From assembly GCA_964035575.1 (NCBI GenBank), contig OZ037846.1, positions 1,550,001-1,614,000 of the forward strand: DNA of 64,000 bases, in the 5' to 3' direction. Source of the DNA: Rhynchopus sp. YZ270_cl-10 (lineage: Eukaryota). Position numbers and translations under genes: made by a program. Each line of letters starts with the position of its first letter. The first letter of the stretch is position 1. Shown here piece after piece: positions 24,871 to 62,166 of the stretch. The notes under the pieces were generated by a model, which had not been told where the DNA came from, made no database searches, and saw only the letters and a list, made by a program, of their open reading frames with translations.

Positions 24871-25626
24871 TGTACGCGACCGGTATACTATTACCTGGAT
24901 AACGTTCAGGGCCGATTGGCACACTGTTTGTAACCTGTATGATACAAGGCTACGCCTATTGTACCACTACTGGTAGCAGGCAGTTACAGTACACAGTCGC
25001 TGCAAAATGGTGCCTTGAGTGTGGCGGAACGCCCTCACTCTTTATTATTCGACTCAGCAGCCTTGATCGCGAGTTGTCACGAAACTGTGAGGGAAGCTAT
25101 CGGTTTGTCGAATTGAATTGGAGCAGGGGATGCGTCCAATGAAAATCACGTCGTCGGGTGAGGTGTGCTTGTTAATGACTTCTCGAGGCCACGTTAAAGA
25201 GGTTGCGTGGCTTGCCAAGCTCCGTTCTTTCACGGCACGCATCACTCATTTGTCCCAATCTGTGCCTGAGCTCTACCGAGCTGCGTTTAGCACATTGCAC
25301 TACTTTTTATGTAATGGAAGGAGCTTCGCAACCTGGCTCTCATGAGCAGCAAGGATTGTGCAGGTCTTTGCGGGGTTGGCTTTTACAAGCCTTCCCTCTC
25401 CATCAGGTTCTTAATCTTAATGTTGATGTGTAGTCATGAGTAGTCTTGATCTCTCACGCAAGGTGTTTATCTTTTTTATGCTTTTTCGTCACCCCTTTCT
25501 CTTCATGCTCTGTGTCACGTTGGCTGCACCCCATACAAGACGCGACGGTGCATGCGGTCCATCTTAATGCATACCAGACACGTGTTCTGACACCTCCACC
25601 CACCCCCATTTCCACAGGATCTTACA

Positions 25627-27762
25627 ATGTACACAATGCGCTGTCTGGAGGGTGTGCTGTCGTTGGACGGGACACTGGACGCTCGTGCACGTCGGAAGCA
25701 GACGTTGTTCTTCGTGATGTGCTTTGTGGCACTGTGTTCGGCATCGTTGGCGGGTTTCAGGACTGTGGTGAGTCCTCAGGGACGGTACGTTTACGTTGCA
25801 TCCTACGTTCTTGGTGTTGCTGTACTACTTGCCGGTGTCGTGCTGGTCCTGTGCAGAGTCAAGCTGAACACACGCATTATCGTCTCTTGTTGCTACCTGT
25901 TGGCTCTCGCAGTCGTCGGGATCGACATCGCCGTGCGTGCCACAGAGAGAGTTGCATGGCCACTGCTCGTGCTCATCGTTGACGTGCTCCTTGTGATGGA
26001 GGTGCCCGCACACTACAGCATGGGTGTCGTCTGCTTCACACTCGTGTACTTCTTTGTCATGTGTCTCGAAGAGGTGTTCAGGTTTGGCATCCTCGACCTG
26101 CCAGGTATCGCGCCGCAGGTGTTCAGACGTGAGTACATGGCCAACAGAATCAACTGCACTGACTATCCGTGCCCTAATATTGAAGCAGTTTCCAGCCAGA
26201 TGGTTGCCGGGATGGTGTTCGTGGTGGACTTCATCGCAACGCGAGGCTTTGCACGAGCTGTCCTGAAGGAGCAGGAGTCAATGGAGCGGACGATCAACGT
26301 TGTGCAAGAGATTGCGTCGTTGCTTGCTGGCTACGACGTGGAGCAGGTGGCGGAGCTGTTGAAGGTGCATGAGGGTGACCTGCCTGAGGGGATGACAGAG
26401 GCACTGCGTAACTTGGAGGAGAACCTGCGGAAGTACCGTCCCTACCTCCCTGCTGCGCTGTTTGAGGCTGAGGTGGATGAAGACGGTGTGCAGCAGCCGA
26501 CTGTGGCACCGCCTGGGCTTGACAGCGAGACAGCAACAATTGTGTTCACAGACATCCGTGCGTCGACGTCGATCTGGGAGAATGCACCTGAGGGGATGCG
26601 TGCTGGACTGCAGATCCACAACGCTGTGATGCGTGAGGTGATGCGGATGTGTGGTGGGTACGAGGTGAAGACCATTGGCGACGCATTCATGATTGCCTTT
26701 GCATCCACTTGCGACGGTGTGGCGTTTGGGTTGCGTGTGCAGGAGCGTCTGTTTGAAGCAGACTGGCCTGCGTCTCTGCTTGAGGATGCACCAATCTGCT
26801 GTCGGCAGGGGTCGCTGTGGGGTGGTCTGACTGTGCGCATTGGTGTGAACACTGGCCCTGTGACTGTGGAGCAGAACACACTGACGGGACGGACAGACTA
26901 TCTTGGACACACAGTGAACGTTGCATCACGCCTTGAGAGCACATGCACACCTGGTGCTGTGGCTTTGCCCTCTGACCTGTGGACATCTGTCTCTGGGTCG
27001 TGCAGTGCTGTTGCAGGTGTGCCAGAAGCAGTTCACTTGAAGGGTGTGTCTGGGAGCACGTTGGTGTGCTGTGTGTGGCCTGTCTCACTTGGGGGACGAA
27101 GGGAGACACCACTTTGCGAGTTTTCTCCGCCCCCTAAGCGAATGTCCAGTGCGAAGCTGGACAAGAGTCAAAATTTGTTTCAAACGTTGAGGAGCAGATG
27201 TCCATCGTTAGCTTCGGAGGGGTCTTCACACTCACGATTGGCGTACTCGACCCGCCAGGTCTCGGGCACTGTGGGAGTTGCACAGCTTGCAGTGGGCGAC
27301 GTGACGGACAGCACAGCATTCCCACACATGAGCTCCGGACTCACAACACTGACGATCACACTGGAGCAGAGTGGAGGGAGTCTGGTGACGCTGCTTGGGA
27401 ACTGTGTGTGTGTTGGGTGGAACGTGTCGCGTTCTGCACCTGCACACATGGAGAACGCGATACGGTTTGTGCAGCGCATGTCTGTGAAGTCTGCACTGAA
27501 CGGGGCTGGTCTTGCAAGCGGTCCTGTGCAGCACGGGGATGTTGGTGCACGGAGCCAGCGCTTTGTGACTGTGATGGGGGATGTTGTGCGTCGGAGTTGG
27601 GCGCTGTGCGAGGAGGCTGTGCGTGACGGGGTTGTGTGTCTGTACGAGCCTCCTGAAGGGACAACACTGCCGTCTGCACTTGAAGACGTTCTTGTCCAGC
27701 ACAAGGGGTCTGGCTACAGAGTCGTTGAGTCAGACAACAAAGAACGAGACAGAGTATTTTAG
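25627..27762 (+). CDS. Multi-TM class III adenylate cyclase (711 aa) with a degenerate second cyclase-like domain, copy 1
   Basis: About 6 hydrophobic N-terminal segments; IVFTDIRAST, GYEVKTIGDAFM, VRIGVNTG, DYLGHTVNVASRLES; C-terminal SGPVQHGDVG...VMGDVV lacking catalytic residues. Start may be Met at 25636. Confidence 0.92.
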   Translation: MYTMRCLEGVLSLDGTLDARARRKQTLFFVMCFVALCSASLAGFRTVVSPQGRYVYVASYVLGVAVLLAGVVLVLCRVKLNTRIIVSCCYLLALAVVGIDIAVRATERVAWPLLVLIVDVLLVMEVPAHYSMGVVCFTLVYFFVMCLEEVFRFGILDLPGIAPQVFRREYMANRINCTDYPCPNIEAVSSQMVAGMVFVVDFIATRGFARAVLKEQESMERTINVVQEIASLLAGYDVEQVAELLKVHEGDLPEGMTEALRNLEENLRKYRPYLPAALFEAEVDEDGVQQPTVAPPGLDSETATIVFTDIRASTSIWENAPEGMRAGLQIHNAVMREVMRMCGGYEVKTIGDAFMIAFASTCDGVAFGLRVQERLFEADWPASLLEDAPICCRQGSLWGGLTVRIGVNTGPVTVEQNTLTGRTDYLGHTVNVASRLESTCTPGAVALPSDLWTSVSGSCSAVAGVPEAVHLKGVSGSTLVCCVWPVSLGGRRETPLCEFSPPPKRMSSAKLDKSQNLFQTLRSRCPSLASEGSSHSRLAYSTRQVSGTVGVAQLAVGDVTDSTAFPHMSSGLTTLTITLEQSGGSLVTLLGNCVCVGWNVSRSAPAHMENAIRFVQRMSVKSALNGAGLASGPVQHGDVGARSQRFVTVMGDVVRRSWALCEEAVRDGVVCLYEPPEGTTLPSALEDVLVQHKGSGYRVVESDNKERDRVF

Positions 27763-29494: not shown

Positions 29495-30689
29495 GTCCGA
29501 CTCAGCCGTTTTTGGCTGGGACCCAACGTACAAAAAACTCATTTTTAAACTTCTGGCCATCTCCAAGGCAATTGCGGGTGAAAAACACCCTCAGAGTGGG
29601 TCACAGGGGGCCTGTGGGTCGAAAAACGACCCAGAAGCCACCCCAGAATACAAAAAAATGGAAAAAAATAGTGAAAAAACGGCTTTTTTCAGGTTTTGGC
29701 CATGTTGGGCAAAACAGCGATTTTTCAAGAAAAAAACCAAAAAACGGCATATTTTTTGACATCACAAAGCCTCCTTTGGCACAAATATACCCCAAAAGTG
29801 GCCTGTGAGTCCATTCCAACCTGTTTTGGACATATTTGACACTTTTGGAAGTGTTTTTTTGGTGTTTTCACGCTGAAAAACACCCCCAAAAAATCCTTGG
29901 ACGGTCCTTGGACAGCACTGCCACCATTGCTCCGACCACATTCTCGGCCATATTTTTGCTTAAAACCCCCGAAAAAGGGCCCCCGGAACCCCAATCTTTC
30001 CAAATTTCCACCTCATCCCCACCCAAACACCGCAAACACACGATAGAAAATCGTCTTAAAAAACACACTTTTTTCAAAAAGGGTATTATGGAACCCGCCT
30101 GATGACCTTTTTGAAAAAAGTGTGTTTTTTAAGACGATTTTCTATCGTGTGTTTGCGGTGTTTGGGTGGGGATGAGGTGGAAATTTGGAAAGATTGGGGT
30201 TCCGGGGGCCCTTTTTCGGGGGTTTTAAGCAAAAATATGGCCGAGAATGTGGTCGGAGCAATGGTGGCAGTGCTGTCCAAGGACCGTCCAAGGATTTTTT
30301 GGGGGTGTTTTTCAGCGTGAAAACACCAAAAAAACACTTCCAAAAGTGTCAAATATGTCCAAAACAGGTTGGAATGGACTCACAGGCCACTTTTGGGGTA
30401 TATTTGTGCCAAAGGAGGCTTTGTGATGTCAAAAAATATGCCGTTTTTTGGTTTTTTTCTTGAAAAATCGCTGTTTTGCCCAACATGGCCAAAACCTGAA
30501 AAAAGCCGTTTTTTCACTATTTTTTTCCATTTTTTTGTATTCTGGGGTGGCTTCTGGGTCGTTTTTCGGCCCACAGGCCCCCTGTGACCCACTCTGAGGG
30601 TGTTTTTCACCCGCAGTTGCCTTGGAGATGACCAGAAGTTTAATAATGAGTTTTTTGTACGGTCATTTACTAGGGAGTCGGACCCCCTA
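29495..30689. mobile_element. Palindromic foldback element 1 (arms ~29527-30082 and ~30106-30661; left terminus degraded)
   Basis: ~555-bp near-perfect inverted arms, ~20-nt spacer; right terminus AGTCGGACCCCCTA at 30676-30689. Confidence 0.85.
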
Positions 30690-31934: not shown

Positions 31935-33134
31935 TAGGGGGTCCGACTGTGAGTAAAATTACCGTACAAAAAACTCATTATTAAACTTCTGGTCATTTCC
32001 AAGGCAACTGCGGGTGAAAAACACCCTCAGAGTGGGTCACAGGGGGCCTGTGGGCCGAAAAACGACCCAGAAGTCACCCCAGAATACAAAAAAATGGAAA
32101 AAAATAGTGAAAAAACGGCTTTTTTCACGTTTTGGCCATATTGGGCAAAATAGCGATTTTTCAAGAAAAACCCAAAAAAGCGGTTATTTTTTGACATCAC
32201 AAAGCCTCCTTTGGCACAAATATACCCCAAAAGTGGCCCGTGAGTCCATTCCAACCTGTTTTGGACATATTTGACACTTTTGGAAGTGTTTTTTTGGTGT
32301 TTTTACGTCAAAAAAAATACCCTGGCAATACCCTGACCGCGCTCCGGCAGCATTCCAGCATGCTGTTTGACCCATATAGGGGTCAAGAAATGGCCAAAAA
32401 CCCCTGAAAAAGGACCCTGGGAGCCCAGATAGTTCCAAATTTCCACCACATCCCCACCCAAACACCGCAAAAACACGACAGAAAATCGTCTTAAAAAACA
32501 CACTTTTTTCAAAAAGGTCATTATGGAGCCTGTCTGACGACCTTTTTGAAAAAAGTGTGTTTTTTAAGACGATTTTCTGTCGTGTTTTTGCGGTGTTTGG
32601 GTGGGGATGTGGTGGAAATTTGGAACTATCTGGGCTCCCAGGGTCCTTTTTCAGGGGTTTTTGGCCATTTCTTGACCCCTATATGGGTCAAACAGCATGC
32701 TGGAATGCTGCCGGAGCGCGGTCAGGGTATTGCCAGGGTATTTTTTTTGACGTAAAAACACCAAAAAAACACTTCCAAAAGTGTCAAATATGTCCAAAAC
32801 AGGTTGGAATGGACTCACGGGCCACTTTTGGGGTATATTTGTGCCAAAGGAGGCTTTGTGATGTCAAAAAATAACCGTTTTTTTGGGTTTTTCTTGAAAA
32901 ATCGCTATTTTGCCCAATATGGCCAAAACCTGAAAAAAGCCGTTTTTTCACTATTTTTTTCCATTTTTTTGTATTCTGGGGTGACTTCTGGGTCGTTTTT
33001 CGGCCCACAGGCCCCCTGTGACCCACTCTGAGGGTGTTTTTCACCCGCAGTTGCCTTGGAAATGACCAGAAGTTTAATAATGAGTTTTTTGTACGAAATT
33101 TTATACACAAGTCTATTAGGAGTCGGACCCCCTA
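31935..33134. mobile_element. Palindromic foldback element 2, complete
   Basis: TAGGGGGTCCGACT ... AGTCGGACCCCCTA; arms 31963-32519 and 32539-33095; 19-nt spacer; flanks G10C and G11C. Confidence 0.9.
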
Positions 33135-36811: not shown

Positions 36812-37957
36812 GTAGTTGTCAAAAAAAAAAAAAAATTTTTTTTTTTTTTGAAAATTTTTTTTCGACAACTACTTTTCCAAGCCTGGAAAAAAAACCGATA
36901 TTGACCGGACTCGACCGGACTGGACCTATATTCGCCGGACCCCCCTTAGAATTTTGAAATTCCAAAATCCACCTTAGTTTTTACCCCTCCGGTGTTTGTT
37001 GTCTTACTGTAATATACGAAGAGATACGTGTGCGGTTGTATGGAAATAATACAAAGCGAAATAATTGGGCTCTTTCGGATTGAATGATTAGAAGAGTGTG
37101 AGTTCGGAAACAAATACTCACTCTCGCTATATTGTTCTCTTATTTATTGTTTCCCCCCCTGTTTGCGCATTGTTGCTGCTTTTTTGTTTACACAGTACAC
37201 ATATTTTTTATTGGTGTGCTATTACCTGGATAACGTTCAGGGCCGATTGGCGCACTGTTTGTAACCTGTATGATACAAGGCTACGCCTATTGTACCACTA
37301 CTGGTAGCAGGCAGTTACAGTACACAGTCGCTGCAAAATGGTGCCTTGAGTGTGGCGGAACGCCCTCACTCTTTGTTATTCGACTCAGCAGCCTTGATCG
37401 CGAGTTGTCACGAAACTGTGAGGGAAGCTATCGGTTTGTCGAATTGAATTGGAGCAGGGGATGCGTCCAATGAAAATCACGTCGTCGGGTGAGGTGTGCT
37501 TGTTAATGACTTCTCGAGGCCACGTTAAAGAGGTTGCGTGGCTTGCCAAGCTCCGTTCTTTCACGGCACGCATCACTCATTTGTCCCAATCTGTGCCTGA
37601 GCTCTACCGAGCTGCGTTTAGCACATTGCACTACTTTTTATGTAATGGAAGGAGCTTCGCAACCTGGCTCTCATGAGCAGCAAGGATTGTGCAGGTCTTT
37701 GCGGGGTTGGCTTTTACAAGCCTTCCCTCTCCATCAGGTTCTTAATCTTAATGTTGATGTGTAGTCATGAGTAGTCTTGATCTCTCACGCAAGGTGTTTA
37801 TCTTTTTTATGCTTTTTCGTCACCCCTTTCTCTTCATGCTCTGTGTCACGTTGGCTGCACCCCATACAAGACGCGACGGTGCATGCGGTCCATCTTAATG
37901 CATACCAGACACGTGTTCTGACACCTCCACCCACCCCCATTTCCACAGGATCTTACA

Positions 37958-40093
37958 ATGTACACAATGCGCTGTCTGGAGGGTGTGCTGTCGTTGGACG
38001 GGACACTGGACGCTCGTGCACGTCGGAAGCAGACGTTGTTCTTCGTGATGTGCTTTGTGGCACTGTGTTCGGCATCGTTGGCGGGTTTCAGGACTGTGGT
38101 GAGTCCTCAGGGACGGTACGTTTACGTTGCATCCTACGTTCTTGGTGTTGCTGTACTACTTGCCGGTGTCGTGCTGGTCCTGTGCAGAGTCAAGCTGAAC
38201 ACACGCATTATCGTCTCTTGTTGCTACCTGTTGGCTCTCGCAGTCGTCGGGATCGACATCGCCGTGCGTGCCACAGAGAGAGTTGCATGGCCACTGCTCG
38301 TGCTCATCGTTGACGTGCTCCTTGTGATGGAGGTGCCCGCACACTACAGCATGGGTGTCGTCTGCTTCACACTCGTGTACTTCTTTGTCATGTGTCTCGA
38401 AGAGGTGTTCAGGTTTGGCATCCTCGACCTGCCAGGTATCGCGCCGCAGGTGTTCAGACGTGAGTACATGGCCAACAGAATCAACTGCACTGACTATCCG
38501 TGCCCTAATATTGAAGCAGTTTCCAGCCAGATGGTTGCCGGGATGGTGTTCGTGGTGGACTTCATCGCAACGCGAGGCTTTGCACGAGCTGTCCTGAAGG
38601 AGCAGGAGTCAATGGAGCGGACGATCAACGTTGTGCAAGAGATTGCGTCGTTGCTTGCTGGCTACGACGTGGAGCAGGTGGCGGAGCTGTTGAAGGTGCA
38701 TGAGGGTGACCTGCCTGAGGGGATGACAGAGGCACTGCGTAACTTGGAGGAGAACCTGCGGAAGTACCGTCCCTACCTCCCTGCTGCGCTGTTTGAGGCT
38801 GAGGTGGATGAAGACGGTGTGCAGCAGCCGACTGTGGCACCGCCTGGGCTTGACAGCGAGACAGCAACAATTGTGTTCACAGACATCCGTGCGTCGACGT
38901 CGATCTGGGAGAATGCACCTGAGGGGATGCGTGCTGGACTGCAGATCCACAACGCTGTGATGCGTGAGGTGATGCGGATGTGTGGTGGGTACGAGGTGAA
39001 GACCATTGGCGACGCATTCATGATTGCCTTTGCATCCACTTGCGACGGTGTGGCGTTTGGGTTGCGTGTGCAGGAGCGTCTGTTTGAAGCAGACTGGCCT
39101 GCGTCTCTGCTTGAGGATGCACCAATCTGCTGTCGGCAGGGGTCGCTGTGGGGTGGTCTGACTGTGCGCATTGGTGTGAACACTGGCCCTGTGACTGTGG
39201 AGCAGAACACACTGACGGGACGGACAGACTATCTTGGACACACAGTGAACGTTGCATCACGCCTTGAGAGCACATGCACACCTGGTGCTGTGGCTTTGCC
39301 CTCTGACCTGTGGACATCTGTCTCTGGGTCGTGCAGTGCTGTTGCAGGTGTGCCAGAAGCAGTTCACTTGAAGGGTGTGTCTGGGAGCACGTTGGTGTGC
39401 TGTGTGTGGCCTGTCTCACTTGGGGGACGAAGGGAGACACCACTTTGCGAGTTTTCTCCGCCCCCTAAGCGAATGTCCAGTGCGAAGCTGGACAAGAGTC
39501 AAAATTTGTTTCAAACGTTGAGGAGCAGATGTCCATCGTTAGCTTCGGAGGGGTCTTCACACTCACGATTGGCGTACTCGACCCGCCAGGTCTCGGGCAC
39601 TGTGGGAGTTGCACAGCTTGCAGTGGGCGACGTGACGGACAGCACAGCATTCCCACACATGAGCTCCGGACTCACAACACTGACGATCACACTGGAGCAG
39701 AGTGGAGGGAGTCTGGTGACGCTGCTTGGGAACTGTGTGTGTGTTGGGTGGAACGTGTCGCGTTCTGCACCTGCACACATGGAGAACGCGATACGGTTTG
39801 TGCAGCGCATGTCTGTGAAGTCTGCACTGAACGGGGCTGGTCTTGCAAGCGGTCCTGTGCAGCACGGGGATGTTGGTGCACGGAGCCAGCGCTTTGTGAC
39901 TGTGATGGGGGATGTTGTGCGTCGGAGTTGGGCGCTGTGCGAGGAGGCTGTGCGTGACGGGGTTGTGTGTCTGTACGAGCCTCCTGAAGGGACAACACTG
40001 CCGTCTGCACTTGAAGACGTTCTTGTCCGGCACAAGGGGTCTGGCTACAGAGTCGTTGAGTCAGACAACAAAGAACGGGACAACGTGTTTTAG
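37958..40093 (+). CDS. Multi-TM adenylate cyclase, copy 2 (near-identical to 25627-27762)
   Basis: Part of duplicated block 24888-~27772 = 37219-~40103 (offset 12,331); visible protein differences only near the C-terminus (VQH/VRH, DRVF/DNVF). Confidence 0.92.
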   Translation: MYTMRCLEGVLSLDGTLDARARRKQTLFFVMCFVALCSASLAGFRTVVSPQGRYVYVASYVLGVAVLLAGVVLVLCRVKLNTRIIVSCCYLLALAVVGIDIAVRATERVAWPLLVLIVDVLLVMEVPAHYSMGVVCFTLVYFFVMCLEEVFRFGILDLPGIAPQVFRREYMANRINCTDYPCPNIEAVSSQMVAGMVFVVDFIATRGFARAVLKEQESMERTINVVQEIASLLAGYDVEQVAELLKVHEGDLPEGMTEALRNLEENLRKYRPYLPAALFEAEVDEDGVQQPTVAPPGLDSETATIVFTDIRASTSIWENAPEGMRAGLQIHNAVMREVMRMCGGYEVKTIGDAFMIAFASTCDGVAFGLRVQERLFEADWPASLLEDAPICCRQGSLWGGLTVRIGVNTGPVTVEQNTLTGRTDYLGHTVNVASRLESTCTPGAVALPSDLWTSVSGSCSAVAGVPEAVHLKGVSGSTLVCCVWPVSLGGRRETPLCEFSPPPKRMSSAKLDKSQNLFQTLRSRCPSLASEGSSHSRLAYSTRQVSGTVGVAQLAVGDVTDSTAFPHMSSGLTTLTITLEQSGGSLVTLLGNCVCVGWNVSRSAPAHMENAIRFVQRMSVKSALNGAGLASGPVQHGDVGARSQRFVTVMGDVVRRSWALCEEAVRDGVVCLYEPPEGTTLPSALEDVLVRHKGSGYRVVESDNKERDNVF

Positions 40094-40443: not shown

Positions 40444-41123
40444 TAGTTTTGAAAAACAGGATCGTGGCACCCTTTTGAGCACAACACAGGAACATGGGAG
40501 ACAAGAAGCGATAGGTTGTTAGTTAACAACTTGTACCTTAAACTTATATGTTTACAGAAAATATCCTAATAGAAAAAGTAGTTTCGAATACAATACATTC
40601 AAAGGAACAGAAAGTAAGAGTCCTGAAATCAACGCAAGTAGGACCTCTTCAAGAGAAAGCACGAAGATCTCAGGATGAGAACATTCTGTTCTCATTCATC
40701 ATTGGTGTGTTCTACAACCATGTGAGCATACCACACTCTCCCCAGTATCACCCAAAACACATTTTGCCCCTTTCCTGGAAGAGGGGATTTTATGTAGCTC
40801 ATTCTTGGTGTCTACACTCATGCAACCAAAGAGAAGCAAAATTTTCAATAACAAAAGCATAGCACGAAACCCCACACCTTTGTTTCACCTCTGTACCTTC
40901 GCGCTCTCCTCTTTTGCAAGAAACTAATGACCGCGATCTTCTTTGCTCGACAACAGCTCTCTGCGTCCGACACTCTATGTCGTTCTTGGAGACTCGCTTT
41001 GCATGTGTCCTGTCGCGATCTTATTCACATTCACATCGCACTGATGTCTCTTATTCTCCGTAGTGCATGCATCGCAAACCACAACACAAAACACAGTTAC
41101 CAACAAAACACAACACAACAACC

Positions 41124-42694
41124 ATGGACGTGACCATTCAAAGCTTCGATAAGAAGGACCACGTCATCGAGGTGGGTGTGGACGATACTGTGATGGACGT
41201 GCGTCGCAACGCGGCGTCTGCAGTGGGGTTGCACGAAGACAGCTTCAGCATGAGGTTCGGAGGAGAGGTTATGTACGGAGCTGACGTGAGGAAGCTGAGT
41301 GCTGGGGACACTATTGTGCTGACTAGTAAGAAGGACGAGGCCATTGCAGCACTTCGTGCATTGGGTGAGAAGGACCTGACGGAGGAGAGGTTGGCAAATC
41401 CCGACGGCGGACCGCCCCCCATAGCACATTTTTGCGGTGCACGGGCGTACGGGATTAGTATCTTTTTTTCGAGAGAACCCAAGAGCGGCCAGGTCCTGGA
41501 CAAGTACGTTGTGCTTTTAGACCAACAAACTGTCTGGGGTGGTGGGACCTCGGGGCGAAGGGTGCTTCCCGGGACCCCAATATCCTACCACAAGGAGCTC
41601 GAGTCGTGCATGGAATGCAGGGTACTCTGAGCCGATTACTTCCACAAAACTCCCAGATCCCAAGACCTCCACGGGGGGCAGGCCTCCACGGCAACCCGCG
41701 ACCGCCGACACCTTAGCTCCGTACTGCCTCTGTCTGTAACCTGCCGGTCCCCCACCTACCTACGCTTTTTGTGGTGTCTTTTTACGACGGTGGACCAAGG
41801 GGCTTTGCAGTGCAGTCAACGCCGACGGAGCGAGACTCGATTGTGACCGGGTGAAAAGGGAACCTTAGCCAGCGCTAACCAGCGGCAGTTTTGACTCAGG
41901 GAAGGAGTTTCTCACCGCAGACTGGCGACACCCCCACTTTTTCGGGGTGGCTGCATTCCTCTTCGGAACGGGGTGTTCCATCCTATTTTTAAAAACGTTT
42001 ATCGGAGGAGAGGTTGGCAAATGTGGGGGATCCTCAAGTGGCGTGTTTGTTTCTGCAGGCGGAGGTTGCGATTGTGACCCCGAACAAGTTCATGTCAGGA
42101 AAGCGGTTCGAGAGCCTTGGTATTACAAACGTATCTGTTGTGAGTCGCAGTTTGGACAGCCCTTACAGTGGTGACAGGGACGTCACCGACAGCAATGAAA
42201 CACTTGACTTCTCTGGGTTGGGCTTTGTGCAGGGGATTGGGGAAAACTTTTTTTTTAACTGCGAAGCGTTGACAGCAATGGACCTGTCTGGGATGACAAA
42301 TGTCACCACAATACACGATGGCTTTCTTCTAGGTTGCACTGAGTTAACGACACTCGATCTCTCTGGGTTGACAAATGTCACCACCATTGGCTCGCACTTC
42401 CTGTACCAGTGCATGGGGTTAACAAGACTCGACCTCTCTGGGTTGAGCCGTGTCACTCGGATCGGTAAATGTTTTCTTCAAAACTGCCAAGCAGTCATCA
42501 CACATCGTAGAGCTGGCCGCTGCAGCAGCCTCGCTGTGCTGGAGTATTCCCCGTACCGTTGTACCCCTCCACCCTCTTGGACAGAGCCCTCCAACAAAAA
42601 GTTATATTCCGTGGAGTTCATACGAAAAAAAAGCGAGGTGCCTACACGTCGTAAATTTATCAAATTTTTCCAAGGGAAGCACAATTTTTTTTAA
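41124..42694 (+). CDS. Ubiquitin-like N-terminal domain + BspA/TpLRR-type leucine-rich repeats; interrupted by a SINE (possibly pseudogenised)
   Basis: MDVTIQSFDKKDHVIEVGVDDTVMDVR (Ubl-like); repeats LDLSGLTNVTTIGSHFLYQC; removing 623 nt joins LTEERLAN to VGDPQ in frame. Confidence 0.7.
41400..41490 (+). ncRNA. Candidate HDV-like ribozyme / internal promoter signature
   Basis: 5' CCCG-ACG can pair with CGTACGGG (41446-41453), followed by ATTAGTA-hairpin-GAGAGAACCCAAG and GCGG able to pair with CCGC (41412-41415); layout resembles the trypanosomatid 77-nt hallmark as I recall it. Confidence 0.45.
41400..42002 (+). mobile_element. 603-bp non-autonomous retroposon (SINE-like) with Ingi/L1Tc-like 5' signature
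   Basis: 20-bp TSD CGGAGGAGAGGTTGGCAAAT (41380-41399, 42003-42022); no TIR; truncated relative at ~45452-45753. Confidence 0.8.
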
Positions 42695-43621
42695 CAAAAA
42701 GAAAACCGACGCAGGAGCTTTTCTTGGAACTGTTTTCATTCTCCTCACCCCAACAACAACATCACATTCAGAAAAACATTGTTTTTTCGTTTTTATTCGC
42801 TTTCTTTTCTTCTTCCTCACACTTTGTTACTGTGAGGAAAATTTTTTTTGTTTGACTGGTCGCGTACTGCGAGTTTTCCTGGATGCGCAGGAAAAATGAC
42901 TGGGGAGTGTTGGTGGCTCCGTGACGCCACAGAGCCGGCACACTCGTTGAGTGCCTCACAAAACCTAAAATTACTTCTTATTTGCATTTATTTATTGTCT
43001 TCACGCTTTATCGTTGTTGTTGGGTTGGGAAATAAAATTGTTCCGCATTTTTACTTTTCTTTACTACGTTTTGCAAAACACACACCATACAAGAAAGATG
43101 GGAACATTTTTGTTGATCCCTCACCATATACTATCAATTTATTGATTGCATATGATCCCTATCCCTGTCGCTTTCCTCTCCCCTTTTTTTTTCTCTCACT
43201 CACCCCACATGAATTTGTTCTCTCACATACTCTGTGCTTGCGAAACCCTCTTGAGGGCGATGCAACCAACCGTGATTTGGTTTTCCTTGGCATGAGCACA
43301 GAGTGTGGTACGCTTGCGGATCTCTAGAGAGCGAGGCACCACCCTTGGATCTATATCTTTGTTATGAGTACTCCCTGGATCTGTTATCCCTGGCATGAGT
43401 ACACCTTTTGTTTGATAAAACAACTTGTTGTCAATTCTAAAAGGATTGGAGGCAGCGCTGCAGGGCAAACAAAACGGATTGAAAAGGACAGAAGCTCGCT
43501 TGTTTCTTTTTTAGTACTCAATTAACCACAACAACCGTACTTCAGTTTAACACAATTTTTTCACCTTTTCATATACTTTCAAATTTTATTTGAAAGTATA
43601 TGAATTTACCTTTTTGTTTTC

Positions 43622-44862
43622 CATAGATGGTAGTCGGCCCGAGTCGGGCCGAGTTTTTGGAAAATCTGGGAGTCGGGCCGACTCGGGCCGACTTTTTTTA
43701 ATTTTTTTTTTTTTTTCAAAAGTCGGGCCGACTCGGGCCGAGTCGAAAAAAATTTTTAAAAAAAAAAAAAAGTCGGCCCGAGTCGAAAAAAAAACTCGGC
43801 CCGAGTCAGCCCGAGTCGGGCCGAGTCGGCCCGACTCGGGTCCCGTCGGCCCCCCCACAGTAAAATCTTTTCCAAAAAAAAAAAAAACCAAAAAAAAACA
43901 AAACAAAAAAAAAAAACCCCAGTGTTTCCCACGGTGAGATTTTGGGGTGAGAAATCTCACAAAAAAAAAAAAAAAAAAAAAGTGAGGTGAGAAATCTCAC
44001 CTGCAGGAAAAAAAAAAAAAAAAAATCATGGTTGAACCACGGGAGTACCATGGGAACTGGGTTGCTGACCGCACCATCCAGGCTGTACCTCAATTTTTTT
44101 TTGCCTGCGGCGCCATTTTCCCTTTTTTGCTCCGCAAAAAAGGGTTAGGTGTGTGACTATGTGCTGTAAAAAAGATAGATTTTTACACTGTACCCTAATT
44201 TTTTTTCGCCTGCGGCGCCATTTGTTTGATTTTTTTTTGCTCCGCAAAAATCCCTATGTTCCCAATGTCCCTGGTCAGCAGTGCTGAGAAATTTTGGGCA
44301 CAAAAACAAGCTGACCCCCCAATCTTCCAACGACAGTGACATTTATGTCAACAATTTTTAGAAATGTTGCGTACCGTGGCTTCGCTTGGGTGCCATGCCT
44401 GCCATGACTGCCATGACTGCCGTTTATTTTGTAAATGTACTGAGGTTACTGATAATTCGTGTACCACGTGTGCCTGGTGCAAATATCAATGAAGTGCCGA
44501 ACTCCGAGAAATTCTCGCATTCCGCCGGAGGCCCCCAACTTGAGCTAAGGTGGGGACCCGGGCGCGCGAAGCGCGCCCGGGCTCGCCACACCTATACAAA
44601 AACCCGCAAAACCGCAAAATCTCACCTATTTTCAGAGTTAGGTGAGATGCTGGGAAACACTGAAAAACCCAAAAAAAAAAAACCAAAAAAAATTCGACTC
44701 GGCCCGACTCGGGCCGACTTTTTTTTGAGTCGGGCCGAGTTTTTTCGACTCGGCCCGACTCGGGCCGACCCTGAAAAAAAAATTTTTGAAAAAAAAAATA
44801 ACGAAAAGTGGTCGGCCCGAGTCGGCCCGACTCGGCCCGACTCGGCCCGACTACCATCTATG
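43622..44862. mobile_element. Element with CATAG termini, 6-bp TSD and GAGTCGGGCC subterminal repeats
   Basis: TIR CATAGATGGTAGTCGG; TSD GTTTTC (43616-43621, 44863-44868). Confidence 0.85.
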
Positions 44863-45451
44863 GTTTTCCCGGCTTTGAGCGCACAAACAAAAGACCCGAT
44901 CTTTTTTTCTCTCTCCCCTCACTTTACTCTCACCGCATACTCTGCGCTTGCGGAACCCTCTTGAGGGCGATGCAACCAACGTGGTTTGGTTTTCCTTGGC
45001 ATGATTGTACACCTGTTTATCTTTTTCCCCTCTTCTTTCTTTGTTCTCCCGTTAAAAAGATCAAAATCCTGTGTGTCTCCCCGGTATCACTTGTGATACA
45101 GTTTCCATGAATAGACATGAAAAGGGGCAGCACACAGGTGGTTCCGCGCCATGTTTTTTTCCACAGAACCGACACGTGTGGCGTGTCTCCCAAACAACAA
45201 AAAGCAAATGAATAAAAAATGTTGAAAGGAAAAAAGGAAGAACAAAACAGTGTGGTTTACAACAGGGACTATAAAATTAATGATTGCACGGCATTAGTCT
45301 TAGTTTCCACCCCCACCCCTAGTTCATACGCAAGGGCATCCCCCTTTCCGTCACCGCTTAGCATGTCCTCACGTTTTGACCCTACTTTTCATTTTCGCCC
45401 AAATTAGCGACTCGGGGCTTATGCTCTTCTCCGAAGTGCATGTATCTAGAC

Positions 45452-45753
45452 AGCACATTTTTACGGTGCACGGGCGTAGGGGATTGGTATCTTTTTTTTC
45501 GAGAGGACCTAAGAGCGGCCAGGTCCTGGACAAGTACGTTGGGCTTTTAGACCTATAAACTGTCTGGGGTGGTGGGACCTCGGTGCGAAGGGTGCTTCCC
45601 GGGACTCCAATATCGTACCACAAATAAGGGGGAGTACACCACGTAGTAGGGTACTCCCACAAACAAAACTCCCCAGTCAACGCCGACGGAGCGAGACTCG
45701 ATTGTGACCGGGTGAAAAGGGAACCTTAAGCCAGAGCTATCCAGCGGCAGTTT
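45452..45753 (+). mobile_element. Truncated, internally deleted copy of the 41400 SINE just upstream of cyclase copy 3
   Basis: Matches ~41423-41650 and ~41814-41893 with substitutions. Confidence 0.8.
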
Positions 45754-45907
45754 TGTCCCTTCCTCTGACTCTCTATTGCTTAGTTTGTGTACAATTCTTT
45801 TTGGAAGAGGGTTTTTGTGGTTAAACATCGAACAAGCCAGGCGTGCAGTTTTTCAACACAAAACACCCCAAACCTCCCACACACAGGCGTCACCTGTATA
45901 CTGTGCA

Positions 45908-48040
45908 ATGCGCTGTCTCGACAGTGCGCTGTCTCTTGACGGAACGCTAGACGCGCCAAGCATCCGCATCCGGAATCTCTTTCTAAGTCTTAATGTAGCT
46001 GCCTTCGTGGGGGTGCTGCTGGTGGCATCAGTGCAGCTAGCGAGCTTGCGCATGAAGTACCTATACTGGGTGGCTGCGTTCGTGCTTGTGTCGTCCACGC
46101 TGTCTGCAGTGCTCATGATTCTGTGCAAGTGCAAGCTGACCACGAACCGCATTCTGGTACTCTGCTCCGTGTACGGCGTGACGCTGTTGTCCGTCGATTT
46201 GAGTGCGCGCAGTGAGTACACTCTCCGCTGGCCGATGATGGTGCTGATGGTGGACTTTCTCCTCGTCATGCAGGTACCCACACGGTACAGCACAGCTGTC
46301 GTGGTGTGCACGCTGGTGTATCTTGCCGTCACCGCTGCTGAAGAAGTCTTCAGGTTTGGTCTGCTGGACATGCCAGGGCTTGTCTCCCAGGCGGACCGTC
46401 GTGAGTACGTAGACAGCTTGGGTGACTGCGCTGCCCTGCCTTGCAAGCAGAAGAAAGCGTTGTCCACCTTTGCGCTTGCGGCGTCTGTGTTTGTTGTCGA
46501 CTTCATCGCAACGCAAAGCTTTGCACGTGGTCTCCTCAAGGAGCAGGCACAAATGCAACGCACAGTCGCGACCGTGCAAATCATCGCGTCGCTCCTAGCT
46601 GGCTACGACGTGGAGCAGGTGGCGGAGCTGTTGAAGGTGCATGGGGGTGACCTGCCTGAGGGGATGACAGAGGCACTGCGTAACTTGGAGGAGAACCTGC
46701 GGAAGTACCGTCCCTACCTCCCTGCTGCGCTGTTTGAGGCTGAGGTGGATGAAGACGGTGTGCAGCAGCCGACTGTGGCACCGCCTGGGCTTGACAGCGA
46801 GACAGCAACAATTGTGTTCACAGACATCCGTGCGTCGACGTCGATCTGGGAGAACGCACCTGAGGGGATGCGTGCTGGACTGCAGATCCACAACGCTGTG
46901 ATGCGTGAGGTGATGCGGATGTGTGGTGGGTACGAGGTGAAGACCATTGGCGACGCATTCATGATTGCCTTTGCATCCACTTGCGACGGTGTGGCGTTTG
47001 GGTTGCGTGTGCAGGAACGTCTGTTTGAAGCAGACTGGCCTGCGTCTCTGCTTGAGGATGCACCAATCTGCTGTCGGCAGGGGTCGCTGTGGGGTGGTCT
47101 GACTGTGCGCATTGGTGTGAACACTGGCCCTGTGACTGTGGAGCAGAACACATTGACGGGACGGACAGACTACTTCGGACACACAGTGAACATTGCGTCA
47201 CGCCTTGAGAGCACATGCACACCTGGTGCTGTGGCTTTGCCCTCTGACTTGTGGACGTCTGTCTCTGGGTCGTGCAGTGCTGTTGCTGGTGTGCCAGAAG
47301 CAGTTCACTTGAAGGGTGTGTCTGGGAGCACGTTGGTGTGCTGTGTGTGGCCTGTCTCGCTTGGGGGACGAAGGGAGACACCACTTTGCGAGTTTTCTCC
47401 GCCCCCTAGGCGAGTCTCCAGTGCGAAGCTGGACAAGAGTCAGAATTTGCTTCAAACGATGAGGAGCAGATGTTCGTCGTTAGCTTCGGAGGGGTCTTCA
47501 CACTCACGATTGGAATACTCGACCCGCCAGGTCTCCGGCACTGTGGGAGTTGCACAGCTTGCAGTGGGCGACGTGACACACAACACAGCTTTCCCACACA
47601 TGAGCTCCGGACTCACAACACTGACGATCGCACTGGAGCAGAGTGGAGGGAGTCTGGTGACGCTGCTTGGGAACTGTGTGTGTGTTGGGTGGAACGTGTC
47701 GCGTTCTGCACCTGCACACATGGAGAACGCGATACGGTTTGTGCAGCGCATGTCTGTGAAGTCTGCACTGAACGGGGCTGGTCTTGCAAGCGGCCCTGTG
47801 CAGCACGGGGATGTTGGTGCACGGAGCCAGCGCTTTGTGACTGTGATGGGGGATGTTGTGCGTCGGAGTTGGGCGCTGTGCGAGGAGGCTGTGCGTTACG
47901 GGGTTGTGTGTCTGTACGAGCCTCCTGAAGGGACAACACTGCCGTCTGCACTTGAAGACGTTCTTGTCCAGCACAAGGGTTGTTACCGTGTCCTTGAGGC
48001 ACAAAGCAGCAAAGCTAGGGAATGCGACAACGTGTTTTAG
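45908..48040 (+). CDS. Multi-TM adenylate cyclase, copy 3 (divergent membrane region, near-identical cyclase region)
   Basis: ATG at 45908 (MRCLDSALSLDGTLD) aligns to MRCLEGVLSLDGTLD of copies 1/2; same catalytic motifs; TAG at 48038-48040. Confidence 0.92.
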   Translation: MRCLDSALSLDGTLDAPSIRIRNLFLSLNVAAFVGVLLVASVQLASLRMKYLYWVAAFVLVSSTLSAVLMILCKCKLTTNRILVLCSVYGVTLLSVDLSARSEYTLRWPMMVLMVDFLLVMQVPTRYSTAVVVCTLVYLAVTAAEEVFRFGLLDMPGLVSQADRREYVDSLGDCAALPCKQKKALSTFALAASVFVVDFIATQSFARGLLKEQAQMQRTVATVQIIASLLAGYDVEQVAELLKVHGGDLPEGMTEALRNLEENLRKYRPYLPAALFEAEVDEDGVQQPTVAPPGLDSETATIVFTDIRASTSIWENAPEGMRAGLQIHNAVMREVMRMCGGYEVKTIGDAFMIAFASTCDGVAFGLRVQERLFEADWPASLLEDAPICCRQGSLWGGLTVRIGVNTGPVTVEQNTLTGRTDYFGHTVNIASRLESTCTPGAVALPSDLWTSVSGSCSAVAGVPEAVHLKGVSGSTLVCCVWPVSLGGRRETPLCEFSPPPRRVSSAKLDKSQNLLQTMRSRCSSLASEGSSHSRLEYSTRQVSGTVGVAQLAVGDVTHNTAFPHMSSGLTTLTIALEQSGGSLVTLLGNCVCVGWNVSRSAPAHMENAIRFVQRMSVKSALNGAGLASGPVQHGDVGARSQRFVTVMGDVVRRSWALCEEAVRYGVVCLYEPPEGTTLPSALEDVLVQHKGCYRVLEAQSSKARECDNVF

Positions 48041-55828: not shown

Positions 55829-58646
55829 GCCACTGGCGTGAAAAAAAAAAAAAAAAAAAAATCACGCTCCTACGTATTTTCCCACAGAAAATAAAAACAC
55901 AAGTGAAAAAAAGTGAAAATACAGTAGTTTTATTTCCGCAGAGACAAATTATCGACAATTAAAATTACCCTTTTCCAACGGAGCCCCACTAGAACTTTAT
56001 TTAACAAGTGAATTAAAAGCATGAATTGGGCTGTTTTGAGCCTCTAGAGTTAATTCCCCAGCCATTTTCTGTACCACCAGTGCACTTTGTATGGGCCAGC
56101 GCCTTGTCGAAAAATCAAAAAATCTCAAAAAAAAAAAAATTTTTTTTTTTTCACAAGTGTTTTTGAGGCCTGCTCACTACACCCTAGGCACCCTTCTGGG
56201 ACCAAAAAAGCAAAAAAAGCAAGAATTGGGCTGTTTTGAGCATCTAGAGTTTATTCCCCAGCCATTTTCTGTACCACCAGTGCACTTTGTATGGGCCAGC
56301 GCCTTGTCGAAAAATCAAAAAATCTCAAAAAAAAAAAAAAAATTTTTTTTTCGGGAAAATTTCGACCACTGAGGTGGGTCTTTGGGCACCAAAAAATGCA
56401 AAAAAATGCAAAAATCGGGTGTTTTGACCATCTGTGGTTACACAAAACACACTTCTGTGTACAAGCCTACACCAATACAGTGGTAATACAAAGCAATTTT
56501 TGACCAAAAAAAAATTTTTTTTTTCGCCCAAAATCGGGCGTGGTACGTCATAAAATGGCCCAAAAAATCCAAGGAAAACCTTCGATTGGGCAAATTATGA
56601 AAAAAATTTTCAAGTCAAATTTTCAACCAAAATACGGTCATTTTGTTCACACAGTGATTCTACGTCATGCTAGCTTCCTGTGCAGAACTCCAGCAATTCA
56701 CCAATGCCGGCATCTATCTTTCCATTATCGCCATTGCACTTCGTGTGTTACCAACGTGCTCAAGAAATGACGTGCTGTCACACTCCAACCAGAGTATCGA
56801 ACCCGTACGCACATAACGAAGATACACGAGCTCACCCAAAGGCGGAGGGTCTAGCCGAAGGCGGACGAGTTAGCCCAATCCGGACGAGCGAGCCTCAATC
56901 TAGACGAGCGAGCCTCATAAAGCACACCAGCTCCAATCTGACGGGGAACTTCGAGCCTCTAAGCCCAGAGAAAGAACCTGGCCACCGGAGGGCCCTAACG
57001 GCCCGACGAGGAGGCGCCCCATAGGGCGCTGGGGCCAAGGGACTTAAGTCGCCCTAACGCTTCGCTAAGTACCTGGAAAAATCCCTAAGGAAAAAAGTGG
57101 AAAAAAAGTGTCTCAAAATTGACATCTATTTTTTGACCTTTTTGCTGGGTAGGTTTGGGTCGGTCCAACCTGACCCTACTGAGTCGGTTTAAGTCGGATT
57201 GGTAGCCTTGTCCCCTATCATCTCCCCTCTTCCCCCTTTTAATACAAGGGCAGTCTCGTGACTATGTAACCTACAAAACCACCATTTAAGCACCTCAGTA
57301 TCATACCCCATCTAAGCACCCTCAACCCTCATCCACACAGATTCGCCTCCTTAAACCTGCAAACCTGCAAACTTGCAAACCTGCAAACCTTCTAACACCT
57401 CAGAGGGCAAGGCCCGCAAACCCTTATTCCAATGGAAGAATTTTTCAAAAATTCTCTATACTTCCTATGACTGGACCCAACTCCCCTCACTATTTTTCCC
57501 TAAAAAACGCCAAAAAACGCCCAAAAAATTCTGCCAAAAATATCAAAAATATCAAAAATGCGCATTTTTGCCGTGCCTCCGCAGGCAAATTTTTTTTAAG
57601 GTGCAGCCCTGGACGGTGCATACAGGCTCGGGAAAATATTGGCTCCCTCGGGGGAGACAAAGTGACCCCCCACTATAAAACCCCTAGGAGGATAATCCTC
57701 CACCCGAGCCCGCCAAAAAAAAAAAAAAAAATGGAGGAAATCCTCCACCAAAAAAGCCTAAAAAAAAAAAAAAAAGCCCCTGGAGGAAATATCCTCCCCT
57801 ACGTGGAGGATCTTGAGAGCACTGCCCAAAATCCTGCACCGTCCAGGGCTGTACCCCCAACTTTTTTTGCTTGCGGCGCCATTATTCCTTCTTTGCTCTG
57901 CAAAAGGGTTCGTTGGAAGCTACATTTTTACACTGTACCCTAAATTTTTTGCCTGCGGCGCCATTTATATTATTTTTGCTCCGCAAAAAGAGAAGTGCAA
58001 ACGCCTCGCACTTCATTGGCATGCACACGGTTACCACGGAGGGTGAATGCAGGTACAAAATCACTGCCCCATCCAAATAATATTCCCAACGTATTTGGGG
58101 ATCCCCTTGCATTTTGCAGCCAAAAATGCAACTAGACCAAACCTGCAAAAAGTTCCGCGCGCGTGTAGCGCGCCTGGGTTTGAGACCCCTTTTTGAATTT
58201 CGAGGGGCGGTTAAAGTGGGCCCAGAATCACAGTTCTGACACTCATTTAGCATTGTGAGCAACTCACTAGTGGTAGTGGTAAATACCAAAACCGAGAACA
58301 AGGAACAACCCTGCCCAGAGGGCAAAACGACATTTTTTTTTTTTTTTTTTTTTGAAAACTTGGAAAAATCACGTGTCGCAACAGAATATATCCACGCCAC
58401 GCCCACCCTCCGCCCAGCTTACTTCCATTTCGCGGTCTACGTTGAGATGAGATGTCCTACTCCCGCTACCGCTCGTCAGTCAACGAAACGGGTATAATTA
58501 GAACACAAGGGAGCAAATCCTTGTGCGAAGTAAGTGACTCGGGGGGGTTTTTTTTTGTGTATTTCTTTTTCTTCTGCCTATCACTAGGTTGTACACCCCA
58601 ACACCGCAGGCTAGTCTACACTACACTACACTCGAACCTTGCAGAG

Positions 58647-61600: not shown

Positions 61601-62166
61601 CGCTCTCCACAACAGGCATCGACCTTACATGGCTTGGCCTGCGCAATGCGAGCCACGTGCAGAACGCTATCAAGTTCATCGGCATGCTGCACAAGCCGTT
61701 GTTCATCTCGACGTCTCACATCGGCGCCTGCTCGGGCAGTGTCTTAGCTGGGAACGTTGGTACGTCGCAGAAGTTCAACATGCAGATCGGCGAGTGTGCG
61801 TCCATTGCAGAGCGCCTGTCGAAGACCGCACAGGAGTTCAGAGTGTTTGCCGTCATCAGCGCAGAGCCCAATACTCCGTGTGCCTGTTCCGATCCTGGTA
61901 TGCTTCACAAGGTCCGGCCCCTCGTGCGTGTGGACACCGACGACGACAGCGTCATTGCGTACCAGCTCAAGGGCGAAAGTCTTCTTGAGAGCTGGTTCGA
62001 CGAGGATGAAGAGGAGTGGTCATGGTCCCCTGCATACACCGAAATGTTTATGCTGAAAGACGTGGCAGCGATCAGGCAGAATGCAGAGATGTCGCCAGTG
62101 ATGCAGCAGGTGGTGGAGCGGCTGGACACGCCCATTGTGCCCATCAAAGAAAGCATTGCAGAGTGA
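58647..62166 (+). CDS. Receptor adenylate cyclase: signal peptide, extracellular solute-binding (SBP family 1-like) domain, one TM, class III cyclase and degenerate cyclase-like domain; exons 58647-59784 and 60074-62166, 1076 aa
   Basis: MSYFLLLLMAGSVSA; LLPLNEFI...ALPLDGDFHLMYYRQDVLAKAGLAPPKTLEE; phase-1 GT-AG intron 59785-60073 joins the two ORFs in frame; TM WMIPTFSALGGVAVLVMIGLVY; IVFTDIQSST, YEVKTIGDAFM, DYFGTVVNIAARLE. Confidence 0.9.

Follow-up and report, generated by a model that had tools for sequence, protein, structure and literature searches.

Three described systems come close to the element considered here. The first is the Pr77 hallmark of the L1Tc/ingi, NARTc/RIME and SIDER retroposons (PMC4035085, PMC3185411), which heads, among others, non-coding retroposons of about 0.6 kb that start at a base C1 and are flanked by a target-site duplication (TSD). 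The second consists of R2 and the R2 SIDEs of 28S rDNA, which insert site-specifically in a multicopy transcribed gene and are freed from the co-transcript by a ribozyme like that of hepatitis delta virus (HDV), the non-autonomous forms keeping the ribozyme and the 3' end only (PMC3774820). The third is the family of retrotransposon hot spot (RHS) genes of Trypanosoma, in which elements of more than one family occupy one 5' coding position of a multigene family and leave pseudogenes with an element between two halves (PMC7563717). Here we describe a 603-nt insert in a stretch of 64,000 nt from Rhynchopus sp. YZ270_cl-10 (assembly GCA_964035575.1, contig OZ037846.1, positions 1,550,001 to 1,614,000 of the forward strand; hereafter the window, whose own numbering is used throughout), which splits a gene of a ubiquitin-like/leucine-rich-repeat (LRR) family and has relatives at the same codon of many paralogs. 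The traits just named are those in which it resembles the three systems, its release from a co-transcript being a prediction: by analogy, it would work like NARTc/RIME at its head and like the R2 SIDEs in that release, and its hot spot parallels that of the RHS genes.

Repeated insertion at one host codon

Exact direct repeats of 20 nt (41380-41399 and 42003-42022) bound the insert, which is therefore placed at 41400-42002. The insert is non-coding, a long open reading frame (ORF) being absent, and the host-gene halves on its two sides read as one 315-codon frame when joined. The 5' half matches the Pfam ubiquitin family (E 9e-4, under the curated cut-off), and an intact paralog (P0050), in which the site is empty, is 97% identical to it across 92 aa. 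The stretch or parts of it were found in 16 sequencing runs from 12 studies, none on record as RNA (two of them, X9 and X12, are regarded as RNA by guess only), and contigs from 7 of the 24 listed runs were examined. In one run (X1) a contig links 41379 to 42003, skipping 623 nt; with 10 differing letters and a gap of 6 nt, this contig probably represents a close paralog rather than the allele. A tRNA-like head was not found by ARAGORN in 41000-46000, nor by Rfam. Insert, duplication, split gene and intact paralogs are shown, and the identification of 41400-42002 as a young non-autonomous retroposon is supported.

The main feature of the element, absent from the original prediction for this locus, is its choice of target: codon-precise insertion into one protein-coding multigene family is well supported, and is the best-supported new feature of the analysis. 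When longer predicted proteins were searched with the translated head, 14 matches came up, every one of them the head fused to a ubiquitin-like paralog, and looking up six clusters with several members added 25 more sequences. In 37 of the resulting 39 ORFs the head stands at the same host codon, after the motif LG-x7-R[LF]-x2, the other two ORFs being host-only; in all 37 fusions the element begins at its first codon. The fusions have 24 distinct 14-aa junctions on contigs of 16 sizes. Their hosts are 40-97% identical over the last 60 residues (median 58%, 171 pairs), and the element is about 99% identical. At the DNA level, paralogous flanks lie in register at the loose contig ends in X5 and X11 on the 5' side and in X9 on the 3' side. 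The flank is similar at every on-target site, the two codons that touch the junction varying, and the site is also occupied by a second element family, which has the 3' tail in common with this one. That one host codon has been targeted repeatedly across the family is a reading of which we are nearly certain.

Among 36 further proteins of the family, 22 continue through the site into ordinary host sequence as judged by our own pattern, 8 read on with short variants, 5 are off pattern and one is a fusion with a long interspersed element (LINE). The proteins counted are ENA gene calls, which may come from one assembly, and protein searches make visible only in-frame, same-sense insertions behind an ORF. 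As in the RHS system, many genes of one multigene family carry retroelements at a single position (37 of 39 ORFs, and the second element family). The host is no RHS homolog, Pfam giving only ubiquitin and LRR families; since the host family here is ubiquitin-like with BspA-type LRRs and the genome bears introns (compare PMC7563717), the RHS-like arrangement would be convergent.

The host ubiquitin-like module also occurs in other company: in P0017, P0018, P0043, P0044 and P0085 it is fused to a Cys/His-rich zinc-finger-like and coiled region or to a beta-rich repeat, which suggests domain shuffling within the family.

The 5' head as a predicted HDV-like ribozyme

As originally predicted, the insert starts with CCC exactly at the TSD, the CCC lying at 41400 and the exact repeat ending at 41399. 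The head, 41400-41490, appears to carry the order and motifs of the L1Tc/ingi clade's HDV-like hallmark, with a long, hairpin-bearing third loop (L3), a reading supported by sequence comparison (Table 1). Our descriptor for such ribozymes asked for a first pairing (P1) of 7 bp with at most one bulge, a P2 of at least 4 bp, a 3-bp P3 directly before the 3' strand of P1 (P1'), an L3 of up to 30 nt starting with YC, a G in the joining segment J1/4, a P4 and the motif C-N-R-A. It accepts one register at 41400: in element coordinates, P1 1-7/47-54 with A50 bulged, P2 13-16/86-89, P3 17-19/44-46, L3 20-43 and, as candidate catalytic base, C80 (41479).

Compared with HDV-like ribozymes in general, the predicted P1 starts at the predicted cleavage site and has 7 bp with one bulged A (6-7 bp being usual), the 3-bp P3, CCC/GGG, stands directly before P1', P2 crosses P1 with four contiguous pairs and one past a mismatch (about 5 bp being usual), and the cytosine of C-N-R-A is the candidate C41479, with two extra bases before the 3' strand of P2 (P2'). 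The pairing that closes on GGG had been foreseen and is found at 41400-41406/41446-41453, one bulged A (41449) being needed; so had the string (T)AGTA-hairpin-GAGAG-AAC-CCAAG, all of it in place within 41454-41483 (GAGAG 41471-41475, AAC 41476-41478, CCAAG 41479-41483). L3 is indeed long and hairpin-bearing, its bounds in the sole accepted register being 41419-41442 (24 nt) and not 41421-41442.

By eye, the order P1'-GGG, a 7-nt J1/4 ending in AGTA, P4, C-Y-A-A-G and P2' is that of L1Tco and TvSIDER1, whose reference sequences come from the supplement of PMC4035085. The head also shares with the Pr77 hallmark a C-G-closed P1, a 3-bp P3 and, if the candidate pair forms, a one-pair P1.1, and differs in its bulged P1 and in an L3 of 24 nt with a hairpin, against 7 nt there (PMC4035085, PMC3185411). 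A single C-G pair, C41420:G41458, is the candidate P1.1 here; in L1Tc, which is reported to cleave at C1, P1.1 is likewise one base pair, and TvSIDER1 and L1/NARTco are described as highly active in vitro, cleavage at C1 being reported for L1Tco and TvSIDER1 too. The first seven bases of L3, CCAUAGC, are identical to the TvSIDER1 loop UCAUCGU at four positions in our own parse, and 17 extra nt follow. Shifting the P2/P3 register by one would keep the pair-bulge pattern of the L1Tco P2 and lose the L3 match to TvSIDER1. Alternatives weighed by hand were a P3 moved by one base, GCC/GGC as P3, and the L3 hairpin in the role of P3; the descriptor passes only P3 at 41416-41418. An R2-like P1 using host sequence was ruled out by eye, because P1' finds no complement in the 20-nt flank and the neighbouring codons vary.

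When the first 110 nt were shuffled with dinucleotides preserved, one of 20,000 shuffles fitted the descriptor at position 1; on both strands of the window, roughly 128,000 starts gave 11 other fits. These chance rates flatter the fit, because the L3 limit and the P1 bulge were relaxed after the sequence had been seen. In runs X5, X9 and X11 some contig pieces have their first base at 41399/41400, a start that marks a shared boundary and not an RNA end.

Table 1. Features of the split gene, the retroposon, its predicted ribozyme and the second copy (window positions)
Feature	Position	Strand	Basis
Host gene, 5' half: ubiquitin-like domain, C-end = LG-x7-RL-x2 target motif	41124..41399	+	Pfam, paralog
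Left TSD copy, 20 nt	41380..41399	+	exact repeat
Non-autonomous retroposon, 603 nt, host-gene sense	41400..42002	+	TSD-bounded; no long ORF; no tRNA
Predicted HDV-like ribozyme, predicted cut between 41399/41400	41400..41490	+	descriptor fit; motif comparison with L1Tco and TvSIDER1
Predicted P1, 5' strand; partner 41446-41453 with A41449 bulged	41400..41406	+	descriptor
Predicted P2, 5' strand; partner 41485-41488; further pair 41410:41490 past a mismatch	41412..41415	+	descriptor; extension from sequence
Predicted P3, 5' strand CCC; partner GGG 41443-41445	41416..41418	+	descriptor
Predicted L3, 24 nt, with 4-bp hairpin 41424-41427/41437-41440	41419..41442	+	descriptor, folding
J1/4, 7 nt, ATTAGTA	41454..41460	+	sequence; length and AGTA end as in L1Tco and TvSIDER1
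Predicted P4 hairpin, 6 bp (three U-A, two U-G, one C-G)	41461..41476	+	folding
J4/2, C-N-R-A; C41479 candidate catalytic cytosine	41479..41482	+	descriptor
3' tail, 59 nt, stem-loop, no poly(A); common to at least one other element family	41944..42002	+	loose ends, P0006/P0007, fold
Right TSD copy, 20 nt	42003..42022	+	exact repeat
Host gene, 3' half: BspA-type LRR	42023..42694	+	Pfam LRR_5, E 4e-10
Copy 2: 5'-truncated relative, outside the target family	45452..45755	+	blastn

The family is young, and its head is nearly invariant. In 41385-41535 no substitution is listed at 1% in X5, X10 or X11, and X12 has no contig on the head. A variant in an X5 contig has P4 rewritten with J4/2 and P2' kept; P4 is described as the most variable part of R2 ribozymes, in which P2 mismatches are also frequent. 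C41479 is kept in this variant, in the second copy and in each of the 33 ORFs whose frame crosses it, and the N of C-N-R-A is C in the 41400 element and T in the second copy and the X5 variant.

The second copy aligns by blastn in two blocks, 45452-45623 with element positions 24-194 (93%) and 45674-45755 with 414-494 (96%), its middle being different. It reads TTGGTA (45484-45489) and GAGAGGACCTAAG (45501-45513), as had been noted, and cannot itself form the ribozyme, because it starts at element position 24 and so lacks the 5' strands of P1, P2 and P3. No TSD was found in a search at this copy, and the 3' tail is absent. Over element positions 24-91 it has six changes from the 41400 element, five of which keep the fold: they fall in the hairpin loop, in J1/4 (where a second P1.1 pair becomes possible), in the P4 loop, in a U-A pair that becomes U-G, and at the N of C-N-R-A. 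Variants thus lie mostly where HDV-like ribozymes would tolerate them, a pattern consistent with constraint, but no proof of it.

An internal block of 82 nt (41813-41893/45674-45755), which folds as a branched stem, is 96% kept though the sequence between it and the head has been replaced; it is possibly a protein-binding or promoter module. A scan of viral contigs with a family-specific pattern gave 0 matches. Looser J1/4-J4/2 patterns gave 11 viral and 8 metagenome matches, which were set aside as chance because none of the 19 has, by eye, the upstream sequence of the family.

A shared 3' tail and a candidate driver

Loose contig ends before 41944 in X5 and X9 mark the last 59 nt of the element as shared with other sequences. 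P0006 and P0007 carry a sister element with the same tail, which in P0007 runs directly into a paralog at the same site. The idea that the tail encodes a LINE C-terminus was dropped after a search that gave two short chimeric ORFs only, which is weak evidence.

The search with the host gene returned P0082, a paralog fused to a 5'-truncated reverse transcriptase (RT). Its cluster holds two near-identical ORFs of 1666 aa, P0090 and P0091, with a 2A-like motif (GDVEENPGP), an apurinic/apyrimidinic endonuclease (APE), an RT, a CCHC-type knuckle, an acidic Gly-rich linker and a C-terminal Cys/His-rich repeat. PDB and Atlas searches identify the LINE as a non-LTR (long terminal repeat) RT; Pfam finds no RNase H in P0090 or P0091 at E up to 1. 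The LINE ORF (2A, APE, RT) lies on contigs of the same sizes as several retroposon carriers, and P0090 is our candidate for the young driver of the retroposon.

The original prediction had proposed a search for an autonomous Ingi partner. What was found is one LINE, a candidate. A 2A-like motif directly before the APE, as in P0090, is reported for L1Tc and ingi, and also for CR1; the missing RNase H is unlike ingi as described. Vingi and other single-ORF APE LINEs (PMC13708176, PMC3708506) share with P0090 the single ORF, the APE and RT and the lack of RNase H by Pfam, whereas Vingi integration is dispersed and, as far as the cited passages go, no 2A is found there, which differs from P0090 and from the single-codon targeting here, the link between P0090 and the retroposon being a candidate one. 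No locus for the LINE DNA was found in viral or prokaryotic contigs, and a regular expression for RT motifs matched none of the six frames of the window. A further protein, P0049, was discarded as a chance match.

Proposed mechanism and competing explanations

On balance we lean towards the reading of a young, codon-specific retroposon of the ubiquitin-like/LRR family whose HDV-like head frees its RNA and which a LINE copies. A host-gene transcript would run into the element; the head would fold in the HDV-like manner and likely cut the element RNA before C1, at 41399/41400; and a LINE protein would bind the 3' stem-loop of the shared tail. The target would first be nicked some 20 nt upstream of where the 5' junction comes to lie, target-primed reverse transcription would follow, and a second-strand nick would leave 18-20 nt duplicated, the LINE endonuclease and RT likely copying the RNA into the same site of further paralogs. 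We infer the fold, its cleavage, target-primed reverse transcription, recognition of the tail and the identity of the driver; self-cleavage of the head, as modelled, seems to us probable by a modest measure. A bolder version is offered tentatively, and we think it rather unlikely to hold in full: an active HDV-like ribozyme with a 17-nt hairpin in L3 would head a codon-specific retroposon driven by a non-Ingi APE LINE, and the divergent ubiquitin-like/LRR family would give that system both shelter and promoters; the RHS hot spot would then have been invented twice, independently, and an APE endonuclease specific for a protein-coding sequence would exist in nature.

A number of findings weigh against an active ribozyme. 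L3 is the loop that builds the HDV-like active site. Here it has 24 nt where 7-8 are usual, and the strict descriptor fails; the double pseudoknot fits from base 1 with the relaxed descriptor. The L3 hairpin is 5.1 kcal/mol more stable than the open loop and pairs G41424, which we take to be the position equal to G25 of HDV; U20, G25 and C75 are positions with roles in the HDV ribozyme. P1 is bulged, the candidate P1.1 has one pair, and two extra bases separate C-N-R-A from P2'. In nested folding with a pseudoknot-free model, P3 has a probability of at most 0.05, and the addition of at least 20 nt of native flank displaces P4 and extends P1 into J1/4; the stability of the head is not above that of shuffles (z 0.79). 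Rfam gave no match to the element at E up to 10, and none of HDV type. No covariation of the helices is visible in X5, X10 and X11, the family being too young and nearly invariant. A change at position 51 of the second copy breaks P1 unless the lost 5' strand differed, and one codon change in P0041 would also break it. SIDER1-beta heads are reported to fold correctly and to be inactive in vitro. The head is not filed as a proven HDV-like ribozyme, because of the length of L3 and because cleavage is a prediction.

Other findings tell against the targeting and driver parts of the reading. The on-target share is not readable from the counts, because only in-frame, same-sense insertions are visible, and copies with the same junction may be local duplications. 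Off-target copies exist, namely the second copy in the window, the 5'-truncated P0047 and two X5 contigs. In P0082 the LINE is joined some 23 codons upstream of the retroposon site, and the LINE N-terminus is no closer to the head than shuffles are (1146/2000), a five-residue resemblance between the two having been rejected as not above shuffles.

The most serious competitor, which we nevertheless consider unlikely, accepts the same site-specific retroposon and regards its head as decayed: the insertion in L3 would have killed catalysis, and RNA would come from an internal promoter at +1 or from host processing. Four departures from the canonical core and the sequestered G41424 fit such decay, as do the foldable but inactive SIDER heads, and Pr77 is reported to be also a promoter starting at +1, from which the same 5' end would result. 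Yet the Pr77 promoter core CGTG is absent from the first 110 nt; P1, P2, P3, P4 and C-N-R-A are all kept in a recently copying family, whose P4 variant keeps the catalytic strand; and R2 ribozymes are described as tolerating deviant P1, P3 and L3 spacing.

Alternatively, the ribozyme may be real and held off, the L3 hairpin and a pairing between the conserved purine-rich target and the P4 U-tract acting as a switch, with cutting dependent on a protein or on transcription. The displacement of P4 and extension of P1 by the native 20-nt flank in nested folding would suit a switch, the flank is similar at every on-target site, and flank-dependent inhibition is reported for L1Tc and NARTco; against this, a single flank was folded, in a pseudoknot-free model, and the fold of 121 nt does not surpass its shuffles (z -0.89). 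We find a switch of this kind improbable. Still less probable is that the shared junction reflects a single old insertion, multiplied as genes of the family were duplicated or converted. Several ORFs do share a junction on one contig (for example, six have one 14-aa junction, four of them on one contig), and the family is clustered and could recombine; however, hosts differ by a median of 42% in their last 60 residues and at the junction codons while the element is about 99% identical, a second element family occupies the same site, and a 97% identical paralog is empty. That chance produced the HDV-like fit in an element end rich in GC, as the relaxed descriptor, the 11 other matches in the window and the silence of Rfam might suggest, is hardly credible in view of a fit that starts at the exact element end, the 1/20,000 shuffles, single-stranded motifs that match tested L1Tc-clade ribozymes, and the 0 of 19 chance J1/4-J4/2 matches in public contigs with the upstream sequence of the family (by eye).

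Relation to known systems and wider meaning

The retroposon with its predicted ribozyme resembles RIME, NARTc and SIDER, as originally proposed, in being non-autonomous, in its length of 603 nt and, by eye against L1Tco and TvSIDER1, in the Pr77-type motifs of its head (PMC4035085). It departs from them at other points. Where they carry poly(A) some 0.6 kb downstream, its longest terminal A run is five, followed by 7 other bases; the CGTG core promoter element is missing, as said above; and its TSD has 20 nt (18-20 nt inferred at two other sites) against the 7-11 nt given for those families. Their pattern GAxxAxGaxxxxxtxTATG upstream of the first nick agrees with 1-2 of 8 fixed letters at the TSD edge, and the best of 28 registers (6/8) lies 6 nt away from that edge. 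Because poly(A), promoter core, TSD length and target pattern all disagree, the element is not filed as a member. From R2 (PMC3774820) it differs in a target that is a divergent protein-coding family, a P1 wholly encoded by the element, a J1/4 of 7 nt against 0-2, a 20-nt TSD and a candidate driver with an APE endonuclease. A literature search, with most subscription papers and Repbase outside its scope, found no retroposon ribozyme or site-specific retroposon of diplonemids and no paper joining HDV-like ribozyme, L3 loop, insertion and retrotransposon.

The predicted long-L3 ribozyme is the most surprising feature of the element. If the head cleaves, the HDV-like fold would be widened at L3, which structure-based searches hold at 7-8 nt, and current descriptors would miss a class. 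Ribozymes of the Pr77 type would, if the reading is true, occur not in trypanosomatids alone but also in what is likely their sister group. With a second hot-spot gene family, unrelated to the first, the parking of retroposons in an expendable multigene family seems to recur in euglenozoans. A target that tolerates divergence at the level of codons raises the question of what the endonuclease reads, and sequence-specific APE LINEs are of interest for RNA-based gene insertion (reviewed in PMC13708176).

Genomic neighbourhood

The window carries eukaryotic genes, among them repeated adenylate cyclases. The frame of an aminotransferase breaks off near 2436 at G/GTATG, the 5' splice motif of three diplonemids; diplonemids are reported to have expanded sets of adenylate cyclases, and the annotation of D. 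papillatum includes an 'L1Tc protein, partial'. Together these features make a diplonemid host probable. Receptor-type adenylate cyclase genes lie at 25591-27762, 37922-40093, 45716-48040 and 58446-62166. Two such genes stand inside a near-identical duplication of 12,331 nt, and one cyclase has a bacterial-type solute-binding domain. The element occurs in runs filed under several organism labels, as do its host flanks in X1, X5 and X8, a distribution that suggests a protist associated with other organisms and sequenced along with them.

An element of 1.24 kb resembling a miniature inverted-repeat transposable element (MITE) lies at 43621-44863. Its terminal inverted repeats have 34 nt (97%), GC-rich subterminal repeats are numerous in its interior, and its outermost bases may represent a TA duplication. 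Similar inverted-repeat elements abound in the window. Two near-perfect foldbacks, at 29527-30661 and 31956-33102, have arms of 556 and 564 nt that are 99% complementary, with spacers of 23 and 19 nt, and are related to each other.

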